Assembly: GCA_031260775.1 (NCBI GenBank)
Contig: JAISKW010000110.1
Location: forward strand, 1 to 10,149
Direction: 5' to 3'
Length of the DNA stretch: 10,149 nucleotides
Origin: Christensenellaceae bacterium
Lineage (GTDB): Bacteria; Bacillota; Clostridia; Christensenellales; DTU072
Position 1 is the stretch's first letter; every line of letters begins with the position of its first letter. The translations under genes and the position numbers were made by a program. The notes under the pieces were generated by a model that was not told where the DNA came from, did no database searches, and saw nothing but the letters and a program-made list of their open reading frames with translations. Shown here piece by piece: positions 4,557 through 8,706 of the stretch.

Positions 4557-4766
4557 TTAACTTTCCTCATTTTTTTCACAGCATGACTTCCCGCCGTCCT
4601 TACCCTTACACGCGGGGCAGGTGCTTGCGGACGGGCAGTACGGGCAGGCGTGCTTGCCTTTCTTTTTGTTTATTATCAGCCGGGCAATTATAAGCCCGAC
4701 CGCTACTATCAGAACAGCGGAGACGATTATCGTTCCCAAATTTTCGGTAAAAAAGTTGTTAAGCAT
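4557..4766 (-). CDS. FeoB-associated Cys-rich membrane protein (small single-TM peptide with C-terminal CxxC-rich tail)
   Basis: 69 aa. TM helix IIVSAVLIVAVGLIIARLII, basic stretch NKKKGKH, then CPYCPSASTCPACKGKDGGKSCC. Good RBS AAAGAGGAA 6 nt before the ATG. Sits downstream of feoB as in many Firmicutes. Confidence 0.8.
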   Translation of the reverse strand: MLNNFFTENLGTIIVSAVLIVAVGLIIARLIINKKKGKHACPYCPSASTCPACKGKDGGKSCCEKNEES

Positions 4767-4782: not shown

Positions 4783-4990
4783 TTTACTAAAGTAAACACT
4801 GATTAAGTCGCGTAATTTGTTTCGCGTAAGCGAAAACAAATTTCTCTTGGCAGCTTTTGGTGCATTTTGGGGCAAAATCGCCGATTTTTCAATTCATCGG
4901 CGGACATACAGTCCGCTGCGTTCTTGAAAAACGTCTACTTTGCCTTCTCAAAATCCGCACAAGGACTTAATCAGCGTTTACTAAAGTCGA
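4783..4990. repeat. inverted repeat (17 bp, 16/17 match) plus 11-bp direct repeat bracketing the 200-bp feoB / small-gene spacer
   Basis: AGTAAACACTGATTAAG (4791-4807) and the reverse complement of 4966-4982 (AGTAAACGCTGATTAAG). TTTACTAAAGT occurs directly at 4783-4793 and again at 4977-4987. The right copy overlaps the feoB stop codon. Inside the spacer there is a GCGGAC/GTCCGC hairpin (4900-4916) and an AATTTGTTTCGC/GCGAAAACAAATT hairpin (4814-4842). Confidence 0.7.
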
Positions 4991-7265
4991 TTTTCTTCCA
5001 AATTAATTTGTCGGGAGGGCAGGCGATTACATATATATACAACGCAAGCGCAATGAATGCTAATACGGTAAAGGCGATATCTAATCCGTTCAAGCCGCCG
5101 ACAAATACGCTGCCGATACGGTATATAACAAACGAGTAGAAATACGCCGTCAGAGTTTGATACCCTATTGCCGCCCAAAACCACTTCGCGCTTTTCATTT
5201 CGCGTCTTATGGCTCCTATTGCTGCAAAACAGGGAGCACAAAGCATGTTGAATACTAAAAACGAGTACGCTTGTAACGGTGCATAAGATGCCGCGAGTGC
5301 GCCCCAAGTTCCGCTTTCTTCCTCCGCAAAATTAAAGAGGATAGCAAGCGTTCCCGCGATGTTTTCCTTTGCGATAAGTCCCGTAACGGTTGCAACCGAA
5401 CTCCTCCAATCGGCAAAGCCCAAGGGGTAGAACAAGTATTTAATGACATTCCCTATTGCCGCAAGCATCGAATTTTCGGCATCCTCAACCATTCCGAACT
5501 TGCCGTCCTCAACGCCAAACGACGATGTAAACCACACGAATATTGTCGCCAAAAGTATGATAGTTCCGGCTTTTTTCACGAACGAGGAAATCCTCTCCCA
5601 AATACTCAACGCGACGTTTTTTACCGACGGAAAGCGATACGACGGCAATTCGGTAATGTAGGGGGCTTGCGCGCTCTTGAACGGCTTTAACTTTTTCAAA
5701 AGCAAGCCCGACAAAAGAATTACGGCAATACCCATAAAGTAAACGCTGACCGCAACCCACCACGCATTGTTGAAAATTGCACCGGCAAAGAGGGCGATTA
5801 CCGGGAGCTTTGCCGAACACGGAATGAATGTTGTCGTCATAATCGTCATTCGTCTGTCGGCGTCGTTTTCGACGGTACGGCTTGCCATAATGCCCGGAAC
5901 TCCGCAGCCCGTGCCGATTAAAATCGGTATAAACGACTTGCCCGACAAGCCGAATTTCCTAAATATTTTGTCCAAAATGAACGCAATACGGCTCATATAT
6001 CCGCAGCCCTCTAATATAGCGAGGAAGAAGAACAAAATAAGCATTTGCGGCAAGAAACCAAGTACCGCCCCGACGCCGGCGACGATTCCGTCAACGATAA
6101 GGCTTTGCAACCAATCCGCCGTGTTAATGGCTGTTAATCCGTCCGAAATTACCTTAGGCAAGCCCCAATCGCTGCCGAAAATGCCCTCGTTTACGAAGTC
6201 GTTTGCGATTGTTCCGACCGTCGTTACCGATACATAGTAAACGGCGAACATTACAACTATGAATATCGGCAGCGCGAAAATTTTGTGCGTCAACACGCGG
6301 TCGATTTTTTCGGTCGTGCTGACTTTCTTAGGAGCTTCCTTAACAACCTCTTTTTTTAGGGCTTCGATAAACGTATAGCGCGCCGAAATTACCACACCGT
6401 CGCCCGAATCGTCGTACTTTTTTTCGATTTCTTCGATAAGCGCGGTAATTTTTTGTTTTATGTCCGCGGGGAGGTTGAGCCTGTCGAAGGTTAAACCGTC
6501 GCGCTCAAGTAGCTTTACGGCGAAAAAGTGCGAGTGGAGGTAGTCAATCGGCAACGTCTTCAAATAGACCTCGATTGCGCGGACTTTTTCGTTAAGCTCG
6601 TCCGTTAAAAACAGCGAGTCGCCGCTGTGTTCTTGCAGATATAAATCGGTAGGGAGTGCGTCGGGGTGGTGAAATAGGTTCGCTCCTTTTTTGCGTGCCT
6701 CGGCGAGAACCGTATCAACGGCTTCCTTCAATCCCGTGCCCTTGAGTGCGGAAATGCATACGACGGGAACGCCTAAACGCTCCGAAAGCTTTTGCGTATC
6801 GATAACGTGCCCCTGCTTTTTGATGACGTCGGTTAAGTTCAAACAAACGACTAACGGGATACCGATTTCGATTAATTGGGTAGTCAAATAAAGGCTTCTT
6901 TCTAAATTAGTGCTGTCAACAATGTTCAGAATGGCGTCAATGTCCTCCTCTATTAAGTAGTTGCGCGAAACCTTTTCCTCGGGTGAATAGGGCGAAAGAG
7001 AGTAAATGCCCGGGAGGTCGGTTACGGTTACGTCCTTATTTGATTTGAGCTTGCCTTCCTTTTTTTCGATAGTGACGCCGGGCCAGTTGCCGATGTATTG
7101 CACCGCGCCGGTGAGGGCGTTAAAGAGCGTTGTTTTGCCGGAGTTTTGGTTGCCTGCGATAGCGATTTTAAGCGCGTGAGTTTGCCCGTCTGCGGTTATG
7201 TAATCGGTTTTTTCCTTACCCTTTTTGGCAAAGACGTTGTGAAGTTTAACTTTGAAGGAGTTCAT
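4971..7265 (-). CDS. feoB: ferrous iron transport protein B (FeoB), G-domain plus polytopic membrane domain
   Basis: 764 aa. G1 AIAGNQNSGKTTLFNALTG, G3 VTDLPGIYSL, long C-terminal multi-TM region with Gate-motif-like segments. Start overlaps the feoA stop. A 32-aa N-terminal extension precedes the G-domain. Confidence 0.95.
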   Translation of the reverse strand: MNSFKVKLHNVFAKKGKEKTDYITADGQTHALKIAIAGNQNSGKTTLFNALTGAVQYIGNWPGVTIEKKEGKLKSNKDVTVTDLPGIYSLSPYSPEEKVSRNYLIEEDIDAILNIVDSTNLERSLYLTTQLIEIGIPLVVCLNLTDVIKKQGHVIDTQKLSERLGVPVVCISALKGTGLKEAVDTVLAEARKKGANLFHHPDALPTDLYLQEHSGDSLFLTDELNEKVRAIEVYLKTLPIDYLHSHFFAVKLLERDGLTFDRLNLPADIKQKITALIEEIEKKYDDSGDGVVISARYTFIEALKKEVVKEAPKKVSTTEKIDRVLTHKIFALPIFIVVMFAVYYVSVTTVGTIANDFVNEGIFGSDWGLPKVISDGLTAINTADWLQSLIVDGIVAGVGAVLGFLPQMLILFFFLAILEGCGYMSRIAFILDKIFRKFGLSGKSFIPILIGTGCGVPGIMASRTVENDADRRMTIMTTTFIPCSAKLPVIALFAGAIFNNAWWVAVSVYFMGIAVILLSGLLLKKLKPFKSAQAPYITELPSYRFPSVKNVALSIWERISSFVKKAGTIILLATIFVWFTSSFGVEDGKFGMVEDAENSMLAAIGNVIKYLFYPLGFADWRSSVATVTGLIAKENIAGTLAILFNFAEEESGTWGALAASYAPLQAYSFLVFNMLCAPCFAAIGAIRREMKSAKWFWAAIGYQTLTAYFYSFVIYRIGSVFVGGLNGLDIAFTVLAFIALALYIYVIACPPDKLIWKKIDFSKR

Positions 7266-7507
7266 TATAATTCCACCTCCACGATAGTCGCGTCGTCTTT
7301 ACGCACGGTTAGGCTATAGCCCCTGAGGATTAACTCCATCGGGTCGCCGAGAGGCGCGGTTTTACGAACCGTTACGACAACGCCTTTGGTTACGCCCAAA
7401 TCCATAACGCGCCGCCTGAGCGCGCCCTCGCCGTTTACTTTCGTAACCGTTGCGGATTGACCTACTTTTAACTCGTCTAATCTCATTTGTTTGCCGTCAT
7501 ACCACAT
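7265..7507 (-). CDS. feoA: ferrous iron transport protein A (FeoA, SH3-like)
   Basis: 80 aa. MRLDELKVGQSATVTKV...RRRVMDLGVTKGVVVTVRKTAPLGDPMELILRGYSLTVRKDDA is the typical FeoA pattern. The start could be the second Met (MRLDELK); neither has a clear SD. Confidence 0.9.
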   Translation of the reverse strand: MWYDGKQMRLDELKVGQSATVTKVNGEGALRRRVMDLGVTKGVVVTVRKTAPLGDPMELILRGYSLTVRKDDATIVEVEL

Positions 7508-7511
7508 TATA

Positions 7512-7559
7512 TGTTAGCTTTGACTAACAATATGTTAGCATAGGCTAACACGCTGTCAA
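7512..7559 (-). promoter_or_regulatory. feoA promoter (TTGACA -35 at 7554-7559; TAACAT -10 at 7532-7537, read on the minus strand) overlapped by two TGTTAG-N6-CTAACA palindromic operators
   Basis: O1 is TGTTAGCATAGGCTAACA (7533-7550), spanning the spacer and -10. O2 is TGTTAGCTTTGACTAACA (7512-7529), covering +1 to the 5'UTR. Centres are 21 bp apart. The -35 is an exact consensus hexamer with a 16-bp spacer. Confidence 0.6.
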
Positions 7560-7606
7560 ATAGGCAGATTTTGAGAATGAAACGATAGAGTTACAACAAT
7601 CCAAAT

Positions 7607-7637
7607 GTAACCAAAAAACTAATTATTCGTTTATAAT
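7607..7637 (+). promoter_or_regulatory. candidate promoter(s) of the ECF sigma gene: ECF-like GTAACC-N16-CGTT, plus a TATAAT at 7632-7637
   Basis: AAC at 7609-7611 and CGT at 7628-7630 are spaced 16 nt apart (an ECF -35/-10 like pattern, hence possibly autoregulated). A perfect sigma-A-type TATAAT lies 11 nt before ATG 7649. Confidence 0.3.
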
Positions 7638-7648
7638 AGTGACAGCTA

Positions 7649-8140
7649 ATGAAGGAAAATATGGACAACGAGCTGGACGCACTGTTCAGAGAGCACTACA
7701 ATCCCTTAAAATTGTATATATGGTCGTTGTGTAAAAACATTCATCTTGCCGAAGATGTGGCGTGCGATGCGTTTTATAAAGCCTTGAAACTTCCGTCTTT
7801 CACCGACGGTAACTTCAAGTATTGGTTGTACAAAACCGCACGGAACCGCCTAATCGACCTCATAAGACGGAAAAAGTTCGAGGGGGAAATGCCCGAGCAT
7901 TCCGAGCCGGTTTCGCCCGAAAATTCGCCCGAAAACGAGCTGATTAAGAACGAAAGATACCGCGCACTCTACCACGCACTCGACTTATTAAACGAGGCGC
8001 AACGCGAGGTACTAATGCTTATGTACTTTCAGGATATGAGTATTATTGAAATCTCCGCCCTGACGGGTAAAACCGAAGCCAACGTCAAAGTATTGCTGCA
8101 CAGAGGCAGAGAGGAATTGAAAAAACTTTTGAATACATAA
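7649..8140 (+). CDS. RNA polymerase sigma factor, sigma-70 family, ECF subfamily
   Basis: Region 2 (LYIWSLCKNIHLAEDVACDAFYKAL, WLYKTARNRLIDLIRRKK) and region 4 (LNEAQREVLMLMYFQDMSIIEISALTGKTEANVKVLLHRGREELKKLL) are present. The start may instead be ATG 7661, which has GAAGGA 4 nt upstream. Confidence 0.85.
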   Translation: MKENMDNELDALFREHYNPLKLYIWSLCKNIHLAEDVACDAFYKALKLPSFTDGNFKYWLYKTARNRLIDLIRRKKFEGEMPEHSEPVSPENSPENELIKNERYRALYHALDLLNEAQREVLMLMYFQDMSIIEISALTGKTEANVKVLLHRGREELKKLLNT

Positions 8141-8160: not shown

Positions 8161-8706
8161 ATGGACGATTTTAAGACATTATACGAAAAATACATCAAGG
8201 GCACGGCGAGTGAAGAGGAAATCCGCTATGTTGAGGACACTCTTTCTAAGAGCGATTCGGTGTTTGCCGAAAACAGCTCCGAGGACAAATTACACGCGCT
8301 TGACGAGGAAAAACTCACTCATGCCGACACGGCAACCATTGAAAACATCAAAAAACGTATCAAGAAAAAAACCTTAACCGCGACTCTTTTAACCTCCTTG
8401 GCGATTTTAGGCGTGGCAACCGCAATAGTACTCGGCAGCGTCTTCGGCGCGGCGGGGTATCATGCAAAGAAAAATTCCTTGATTGACGAGGACGAAGCCG
8501 AGTCTATCGCACGCGCTTTCGCCGAGGAAGAATGCGGTGTTGACGATTCGTACGAAACCGATTACGTCCACCAACGCTTAGTCTTTAGAGGCGCGCTCAA
8601 AAACACCTATTACGAGCATGTTGTCGAGTTTGAATACAACAACCGCGAGGTTGTGATTATCATCGACGGAATCAGCGGCGAAGCCACTCTGCACAAGGCG
8701 GAATAA
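8161..8706 (+). CDS. putative anti-sigma factor: cytoplasmic N-terminal domain, one TM helix, extracytoplasmic PepSY-like domain
   Basis: The 20-nt gap after the sigma gene implies an operon. N-terminus MDDFKTLYEKYIKGTASEEEIRYVEDTLSKSD has the helical anti-sigma N-domain pattern but no His/Cys zinc ligands. TM helix LLTSLAILGVATAIVLGSVFGAAG. C-terminus IDEDEAESIARAFAEEECGV...YYEHVVEFEYNNREVVIIIDGISGEATL fits the PepSY fold pattern. Confidence 0.65.
   Translation: MDDFKTLYEKYIKGTASEEEIRYVEDTLSKSDSVFAENSSEDKLHALDEEKLTHADTATIENIKKRIKKKTLTATLLTSLAILGVATAIVLGSVFGAAGYHAKKNSLIDEDEAESIARAFAEEECGVDDSYETDYVHQRLVFRGALKNTYYEHVVEFEYNNREVVIIIDGISGEATLHKAE

Follow-up and report, generated by a model that had tools for sequence, protein, structure and literature searches.

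Iron control in Firmicutes is usually credited to Fur. Among the described systems closest to the locus analyzed here are those of the DtxR/MntR family of metal-dependent repressors. IdeR recognizes a 19-bp box, TTAGGTTAGSCTAACCTAA, which contains four CCTAA-type repeats arranged as two overlapping one-dimer units. A single IdeR dimer reads repeats 1 and 3 of this box (TTAGG-N4-SCTAA), with Gln43 contacting the inner base, and is able to bind half boxes alone (PMC8464063). In Bacillus subtilis, MntR dimers occupy 18-bp sites composed of two 9-bp inverted repeats, which overlap σA promoters, and adjacent sites are bound cooperatively (PMC11882963). The enterobacterial MntR box has been defined as AACATAGC-N4-GCTATGTT, an AGC-N4-GCT layout (PMC1698941). 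A connection between DtxR and ferrous iron uptake has been described in archaea: a DtxR-family gene adjoins feoA/feoB in Methanococcus voltae (Mvol_0620) and Pyrococcus furiosus, and its product is regarded as a repressor of feoAB under conditions of available Fe(II) (PMC8516115, which cites Zhu et al., 2013). Within the limited literature searched, nothing specific was found on the motif described below, or on DtxR together with feoB, in Clostridia.

The window, i.e., the whole 10,149-bp stretch of DNA analyzed (contig JAISKW010000110.1 of a Christensenellaceae bacterium), carries a feoA-feoB operon on the minus strand, in whose promoter region two palindromes, here called O1 and O2, are found. 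The features of this region, in the direction of transcription, are the following:

7554..7559, minus strand: -35 hexamer TTGACA of the feoA promoter, from the promoter scan
7533..7550: O2, candidate upstream operator, TGTTAGCATAGGCTAACA, a perfect palindrome with the core GTTAGC-N4-GCTAAC, over the promoter spacer and the -10 hexamer
7532..7540, minus strand: extended -10 element TGcTAACAT, with a 16-nt spacer, TG present and 10 of 12 matches
7512..7529: O1, candidate downstream operator, TGTTAGCTTTGACTAACA, an 18-bp palindrome covering the region in which transcription is predicted to start
7265..7507, minus strand: feoA (Pfam FeoA, 5.6e-20), longest open reading frame from 7507
4971..7265, minus strand: feoB, ferrous iron transporter (Pfam FeoB_N, Gate, FeoB_C and FeoB_Cyto)
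4557..4766, minus strand: gene for a small FeoB-associated membrane protein rich in Cys (Pfam PF12669, 25.2 bits, slightly below the cut-off of 27)

The preliminary description of this DNA had reported two TGTTAG-N6-CTAACA palindromes with centers 21 bp apart. Both are indeed exact 6-N6-6 palindromes of 18 bp (7512-7529 and 7533-7550) with that center-to-center distance. No other copy of the half-site pair had been noticed in the window, and no third copy is present in the 10,149 bp even when up to two mismatches are allowed; at this stringency, 0.24 matches per window are expected by chance, and two matches were reached in 3 of 200 shuffles. The assignment of a consensus TTGACA -35 and a TAACAT -10 to feoA has been borne out as well: in the scan of the minus strand from 7200 to 7800, TTGACA-16-TGcTAACAT is the sole sequence resembling a promoter. 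Because of the position of this promoter on the minus strand, O2 fills the spacer and supplies the -10 hexamer (TAACAT, 7537-7532), which is formed by its right half-site. O1 starts 3 nt past the -10 and covers the start region, so both sites lie over the core promoter and start region of a metal-uptake operon. An everted reading of the intervening sequence (CTAACA-N3-TGTTAG between O1 and O2) was considered and rejected, as everted pairs of any spacing are found 0-2 times in all loci; such a pair is a by-product of the 21-bp spacing between O1 and O2.

With regard to the rest of the locus, feoA probably starts at the ATG at 7486 (MRLDELKVG...), as judged from the alignment with relatives. The FeoB of the window is 100% identical to a protein deposited as 'ferrous iron transport protein B [Christensenellaceae bacterium]'. 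Its reading frame has about 31 additional N-terminal residues with respect to the relatives (7170-7265 region, minus strand), and the feoB ATG and the stop of feoA overlap. The window thus lacks both a gap between feoA and feoB and an internal operator, whereas in 28 of the 45 related loci described below a site is found in the gap or just 5' of feoB. The Cys-rich peptide gene at 4557-4766 is probably the last gene of the feo operon, and a small Cys-rich gene is also present 3' of feoB in 23 related loci. Divergently from feoA, an ECF-type sigma factor gene starts at 7649 (7649-8140, plus strand). It is preceded by AAC-N16-CGT at 7609-7630 (plus strand), which resembles an ECF-type promoter and lies about 60 bp from the candidate feoA operators without overlapping them, and it is followed by an open reading frame for 181 aa (8161-8706) that has no Pfam match and possibly encodes an anti-sigma factor.

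The palindromes are a real and conserved element. The comparison set consisted of 45 loci encoding FeoB relatives (33-57% identity), with one genome per species, mostly from uncultured Clostridia (Acutalibacteraceae, 'Fimenecus', Erysipelotrichaceae, Butyrivibrio, and Oscillospiraceae). In the 395 kb that these 45 feoB loci and the window comprise, the exact core GTTAG-N6-CTAAC occurs 74 times against 0.38 expected, while the same half-sites at spacings of 0-5 or 7-12, or in everted orientation, give 0-2 copies each. All copies except one are located within 400 bp 5' of feoA or inside the feoA-feoB gap; the Smithellaceae locus has no copy of GTTAG-N6-CTAAC. The consensus of the sites of the relatives is RGTTAGC-N4-GCTAACY, in which the four central bases vary freely, and O2 and O1 match it at 12 and 11 of 14 positions, respectively. 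The O2 core with identical central bases (GTTAGCATAGGCTAAC) is found again in three loci (L014, L023, and L121), and the 16-bp core of O1 (GTTAGCTTTGACTAAC) has an identical copy in L077 and a copy with a one-base difference in L051. Of the hexamer originally proposed, the GTTAG/CTAAC part is the conserved one, in the form GTTAG(C)-N4-(G)CTAAC. Its outer T/A does not hold for the relatives: at the outer position of the half-sites, A accounts for 59%, G for 28% and T for just 12%, so that TGTTAG/CTAACA, a form shared with two Butyrivibrio loci, is a minority variant, as is the 21-bp spacing of the window.

The position of the sites with respect to the promoter is also very regular. The best-scoring promoter has the consensus -35 TTGACA in 36 of 37 related feoA loci. 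In 33 of the 37 loci in which promoter and site are both present, the arrangement is TTGACA-17-TAnnnT followed by the site, whose first G lies 7-11 nt past the -10, i.e., at the predicted transcription start; about half of these 33 loci carry a second site 34-35 bp further downstream. In the three Erysipelotrichaceae loci (L001-L003), the upstream site is found inside the spacer of the promoter and lies 22 nt ahead of the end of the -10, and in two of them (L001 and L002) the second site begins 7-10 nt past the -10. The window, with sites at -18 and +3 with respect to the end of the -10, is a variant of this Erysipelotrichaceae design. Altogether, a placement on the core promoter or start site comparable to that of the window is seen in 36 related loci. 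The distance between neighboring sites at feo loci, measured start to start, peaks at 34-36 bp (26 of 56 pairs), with smaller groups at 29, 24-26, and 21 bp, so that no single helical phasing applies to the family. The layout had been interpreted as that of a dimeric repressor occluding RNA polymerase, and this interpretation gains from finding the same palindrome fixed on consensus feoA promoters of dozens of other Clostridia.

Some minor features of the related sites deserve mention. In several feoA-feoB gaps (L007, 1568-1614; L004, L011, L018, and L043), the site is located just 3' of a terminator-like hairpin with a T tract and just 5' of the feoB ribosome-binding site, which suggests either a separate repressible promoter for feoB or a roadblock formed by the bound protein. 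A terminator scan of the gap gave a match in L007 and none in L011, and the gap-terminator pattern therefore rests partly on reading by eye. Over all 74 sites, a strand asymmetry is apparent in the sense orientation: an outer G..T pair is found 20 times, an outer A..C pair 6 times, and the four bases in the center are rich in A. Given that the first site starts at +1, the feoA mRNAs of most relatives would begin with a hairpin of 6-8 bp.

The branch of relatives that uses Fur offers a natural control. The closest named relatives of the window FeoB (58% identity) belong to C. hylemonae, C. scindens, and Blautia. In the first two of these, a Fur box lies directly 3' of the -10 of the feoA promoter, and no GTTAG site is found in 14 kb at their feo loci. 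These Fur boxes, which served as positive controls, score 12-13 of 14. In the window, a Fur box was sought between 7480 and 7660 and rejected, the best matches being 8 of 14 to the 7-1-7 form TGATAATNATTATCA and 10 of 19 to the 19-mer GATAATGATAATCATTATC, in agreement with the initial statement that the half-site is unlike a Fur box. The two arrangements share the operon, the place of the operator and the expected logic of repression by a metal-loaded protein, and they differ in that the Fur family and its motif are unrelated to those proposed for the window. At one and the same position of the promoter of this operon, one branch thus carries a Fur box and another branch the GTTAG palindrome, which supports the view of the palindrome as the operator of a metal-dependent repressor. 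As a side observation, an 80-aa open reading frame with a Fur-family domain only (L168, 5238-5480) lies directly ahead of feoA-feoA-feoB in C. hylemonae, with the Fur box in the shared promoter.

The geometry of the palindromes points to the family of repressors that is probably involved. O2 reads TTAGC-N4-GCTAA and O1 reads TTAGC-N4-ACTAA, and both fit the one-dimer DtxR/MntR operator (TTAGS-N4-SCTAA), the spacing of which is exclusive in the relatives (74 copies at N6 against 0-2 elsewhere). The classical 19-bp IdeR/DtxR box (TTAGGTTAGSCTAACCTAA) was tried and rejected, because the best match is 14 of 19, in offset registers that align the pair of one dimer, and each site has two repeats instead of four. 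The initial claim that the spacing differs from that of DtxR sites was not borne out, as TTAGC-N4-GCTAA has precisely the spacing of repeats 1 and 3 read by one IdeR dimer (PMC8464063). The sites of the window and of IdeR/DtxR thus share the (S)CTAA pentamer, the within-dimer spacing, and the overlap with promoters of iron uptake genes, which IdeR and DtxR repress. The difference is in the assembly of the units: in the 19-bp site of Actinobacteria, two interleaved dimer units lie on opposite faces at a distance of 5 bp, whereas the units of the window and its relatives stand alone, in tandem, 21-35 bp apart. MntR operators are also alike, with one dimer, as proposed for the window, per 18-bp site of 9-bp inverted repeats, a TAGC-N4-GCTA core, sites that overlap σA/σ70 promoters ('doorstop' repression), and adjacent sites that can be cooperative (PMC11882963, PMC1698941). 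Nonetheless, the identity of the window to the enterobacterial MntR box is only 9 of 16, and the arrays of B. subtilis MntR advance in 19-bp steps, in contrast with 21 bp in the window and mostly 34-35 bp in the relatives.

A candidate protein of this family was found by clustering all open reading frames of the 45 loci. The sole recurrent regulator family in these neighborhoods is a DtxR/MntR-family protein of about 120 aa, whose gene adjoins feo in 16 of the 45 genome loci, mostly divergent from feoA across the sites. It is located in other cases 3' of feoB in the same orientation (L170 and L171; also 3' of feoB in L035, a Christensenellaceae MAG) or is unlinked from feo (L169). No DtxR-like gene is present in the window, which spans the entire contig; for this reason, we infer the presence of the regulator in the genome of the window from relatives with at most 58% FeoB identity, and its gene presumably lies off contig JAISKW010000110.1. 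As the unlinked gene of L169 illustrates, the lack of a regulator gene in the window does not count against a DtxR-type model. Since the geometry matches and a DtxR/MntR-family regulator is linked to the sites in the relatives, the regulator family can be considered known. The suggestion of an uncharacterised iron regulator made in the preliminary description holds in the sense that the subfamily and its feoAB regulon appear undescribed, within the limited literature searched; it does not hold for the family.

The linked regulators contain the Pfam domains Fe_dep_repress and Fe_dep_repr_C only, and the SH3-like domain is absent from them according to both Pfam and the alignment to DtxR. They score under the cut-offs of the NCBIfam MntR and DtxR equivalogs (81 versus 153 bits for MntR), the solved structures that match them best are those of E. 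coli MntR, DtxR, IdeR, and B. subtilis MntR (E about 1e-13), and their homologues, which amount to hundreds, are nearly all metagenomic with generic names only. In the alignment to DtxR, the primary metal site (Met10, Cys102, Glu105, and His106) is conserved, as is His79, whereas Glu83 and His98 of the ancillary site are not kept; Cys102, Glu105, and His106 are retained in nearly all regulators examined. The recognition helix reads S-x-P-S-V-S-R, to be compared with S37-G-P39-T-V-S-Q43 of DtxR. Consequently, the linked regulator resembles IdeR/DtxR in the Ser and Pro of the helix and, in the main subgroup, in the four primary ligands. It differs from them by lacking the third domain and Glu83/His98 and by having Arg or Val, not Gln, at residue 43. 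With MntR, it shares the two-domain build, and it departs from MntR in having Cys at the metal-site position at which MntR has Glu and in its presumed target, which is feoAB instead of mntH/mntABC. The archaeal DtxR-feoAB pairs are alike in gene adjacency and proposed logic, and their promoters are archaeal, not σ70 (PMC8516115).

Two subtypes of the regulator are recognized among loci L001-L165. The first has the ...SVSR helix, Met at the Met10 position, and a strongly conserved inner C:G operator pair; in the second, the helix is ...SVSV, the Met10 position is taken by Asn or Asp, and the inner operator base is degenerate. In the linked pairs of regulator and site, Arg at the Gln43 position is accompanied by an inner C, which corresponds to the G of GCTAA on the opposite strand, in 72% of the half-sites, and Val in 45%, at the residue that in IdeR contacts the inner base (PMC8464063). 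This co-variation between helix residue and inner base speaks indirectly for a metal-dependent binding of the regulator to the sites; because the sequences are related, it has the value of a pattern in favor and not that of a statistical test. In the three Erysipelotrichaceae loci, a second paralogue of 106-113 aa is encoded 3' of feoB (L001, 6453-6794; L002, 6462-6794; L003, 3345-3665), which has the DtxR-type DNA-binding domain only and none of the metal ligands.

On these grounds, O1 and O2 are proposed to be tandem operators of a metal-dependent, short two-domain DtxR/MntR repressor acting on the feoA promoter and responding most likely to Fe2+, a reading to which we assign a probability of roughly 0.78. 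The repressor, of about 120 aa, would comprise a winged-helix DNA-binding domain and a dimerization/metal-binding domain, without an SH3/FeoA-like domain. Each 18-bp inverted repeat would be occupied by one dimer, every GCTAA half-site being contacted by a single recognition helix. When metal (most likely Fe2+) is plentiful, loaded dimers would occupy the spacer and -10 through O2 and the start site through O1, and would exclude RNA polymerase or block DNA opening, shutting off ferrous iron import. At low metal, the apo-protein would depart and feoA-feoB would be transcribed. As O1 and O2 are 21 bp, i.e., two helical turns, apart, the two dimers would lie on the same face of the DNA, possibly aiding each other's binding. 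The binding of a DtxR-like protein to these sites, repression rather than activation, and cooperativity are all presumed from the comparisons above.

The breadth of the regulon was explored by a scan of metagenome contigs for two cores 2-32 bp apart, which gave at least 120 loci. Among the matches listed, an HMM search found feoA, feoB, or the regulator in 40 loci (a third of 120), and most of these 40 tandem-site loci include the regulator gene. Other genes flanking tandem sites, again among the matches listed, encode NEAT/Shp haem-binding proteins (at least three, one of them fused to a periplasmic binding domain), a TonB-dependent receptor adjoining the regulator gene, ZIP transporters (at least two), ABC ATPases (at least three), NrdI (at least two), and DUF2325 proteins (at least three, one in an operon with the regulator). 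Genes without an evident metal link were also present among the matches listed: SAM methyltransferases (at least nine), DUF3793 (at least five), and enolase (at least three). A search for the palindrome at metal genes had been suggested as a check, and among the matches listed tandem copies are strongly enriched at iron and metal uptake genes; the enrichment at iron uptake is clear, without the palindrome being restricted to such genes.

For the identity of the metal, an alternative has to be weighed. The sulfur ligands Met10 and Cys102 are thought to favor Fe(II) over Mn(II), and swapping them alters the response (PMC11672702). Met10 is kept, together with Cys102, in 20 of 22 Arg-type regulators, while the Val-type regulators have Asn or Asp at this position together with Cys. 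Among the regulators beside the nearest FeoB relatives of the window, that of L106 has Asn, that of L161 Asp, and that of L054 Met at the Met10 position, so that the ligand argument for iron is not clean there; it appears good for the family and moderate for the genome of the window, and Fe(II) would be the effector metal. The same sites and the same family could instead serve a manganese sensor of the MntR type, if FeoAB imported Mn2+ or the operon were shut off by Mn, and FeoB2 of Porphyromonas gingivalis is a transporter that accumulates manganese. The top NCBIfam matches of the regulator are two MntR models, both below cut-off, its best solved relative is E. coli MntR, the JGI name for the relatives is 'Mn-dependent DtxR family transcriptional regulator', Asn or Asp occupies the Met10 position in many members, as in MntR (PMC11672702), and the two-domain build and the one-dimer 18-bp site layout are those of MntR (PMC11882963). 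We nevertheless regard a manganese sensor as unlikely: the position of MntR Glu99 is Cys in nearly every member examined, the largest regulator subgroup has the full DtxR set Met/Cys/Glu/His, the scores are far under the MntR equivalog cut-offs (81 versus 153 bits), haem-uptake NEAT/Shp genes and the TonB-dependent receptor bear the same tandem sites, and Fur, an iron sensor, takes the same promoter position in the nearest named relatives. MntR proper, defined by Asp/Asn and Glu at the Met10 and Cys102 positions and a score above the NCBIfam cut-off, was rejected for the linked regulators of the relatives, which have Cys in nearly all cases and reach 81 versus 153 bits.

That a regulator of another family binds the palindromes, with the neighboring DtxR-like gene as a co-regulated passenger, would agree with the lack of a regulator gene in the window, with the roughly two thirds of site-bearing feoB loci that have no regulator gene within 4 kb, and with the occurrence of the palindrome in arrays and at genes without an obvious metal link. 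It is nonetheless very unlikely, given that half-site and spacing fit DtxR-family recognition (PMC8464063), that the recognition-helix residue co-varies with the inner base, and that the DtxR-like gene is the only recurrent regulator gene family nearby. Finally, the palindromes could act as RNA, a 6-8 bp hairpin in the feoA leader or the feoA-feoB spacer controlling mRNA stability or translation. The location of the first site at the predicted +1 in 33 of 37 related loci, the sites just 5' of the feoB ribosome-binding site, and the bias of the sense strand (outer pair G..T 20 times versus A..C 6 times, A-rich center) would suit such an element. In the window, however, O2 is 5' of the start, and transcription is predicted to begin within the left arm of O1; O2 being untranscribed and O1 cut, neither hairpin would be transcribed whole. 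The L001-L003 loci also have one site in the promoter spacer, and the stem is invariant across families, without compensatory changes, while the loop is variable, which is the signature of a protein-DNA site. No Rfam covariance model matched 7300-7800 up to E = 1. An RNA element is therefore considered extremely unlikely as the explanation, and a hairpin may have a minor side role in other lineages.

Under the repressor reading, a DtxR-type protein most likely stands in for Fur at feoAB in many gut Clostridia. For the window itself, this explains a promoter and reveals no new kind of system. More generally, the data speak for a DtxR/MntR subfamily that is widespread among low-GC gut anaerobes and replaces Fur on the main ferrous iron importer, and its sharply defined operator and very regular promoter design provide a ready motif for annotating the iron regulons of MAGs. 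The subfamily also offers natural variants at the positions for metal selectivity (an invariant Cys combined with Met, Asn, or Asp) and at the position that reads the base (Arg or Val), and a simple one-dimer model for DNA reading by DtxR-type proteins. A bolder reading can be formulated, according to which a large group of uncultured gut Clostridia (Christensenellaceae, Acutalibacteraceae/Oscillospirales, Erysipelotrichaceae, and some Butyrivibrio) would control ferrous iron uptake, and in places haem uptake, by a minimal two-domain DtxR-type sensor instead of Fur, with a hybrid (Met/Asn/Asp)-Cys-Glu-His site and single dimers on tandem GTTAGC-N4-GCTAAC sites. In its boldest form, free-standing FeoA would act in trans as the missing third domain, an idea that derives from the homology of FeoA to the SH3/FeoA domain that the repressor lacks. 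In the streptococcal repressor MtsR, the SH3/FeoA domain mediates oligomerization on promoters (PMC6698748). If this were true, FeoA would bridge the tandem dimers or complete the metal site, giving a product feedback on feoAB. This bold reading is quite improbable.

The occurrence of the sites at genes without a metal link and in dense arrays indicates that other proteins may also use the palindrome. Dense arrays of the 16-bp palindrome are found in L099 (27 copies in 9.9 kb), L121 (612-773 and 1864-1959), L124, and L159, with steps of 19-20, 28-40, or 33 bp and, often in L099, L124, and L159, GC-rich flanks (cccgggca). The open reading frames beside these four arrays have no Pfam match above the curated cut-offs, and a different protein or a mobile element may use the same palindrome there. 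Tandem palindromes are also located 5' of DUF3793 genes in L065, L088, L110, L131, and L153, and upstream of class I SAM methyltransferase genes in L049, L050, L056, L073, L084, L090, L117, L122, and L164. Eight of these nine methyltransferase loci share GTTAGAT...CTAAC sites with a 34-35 bp spacing, L117 being the one that differs.
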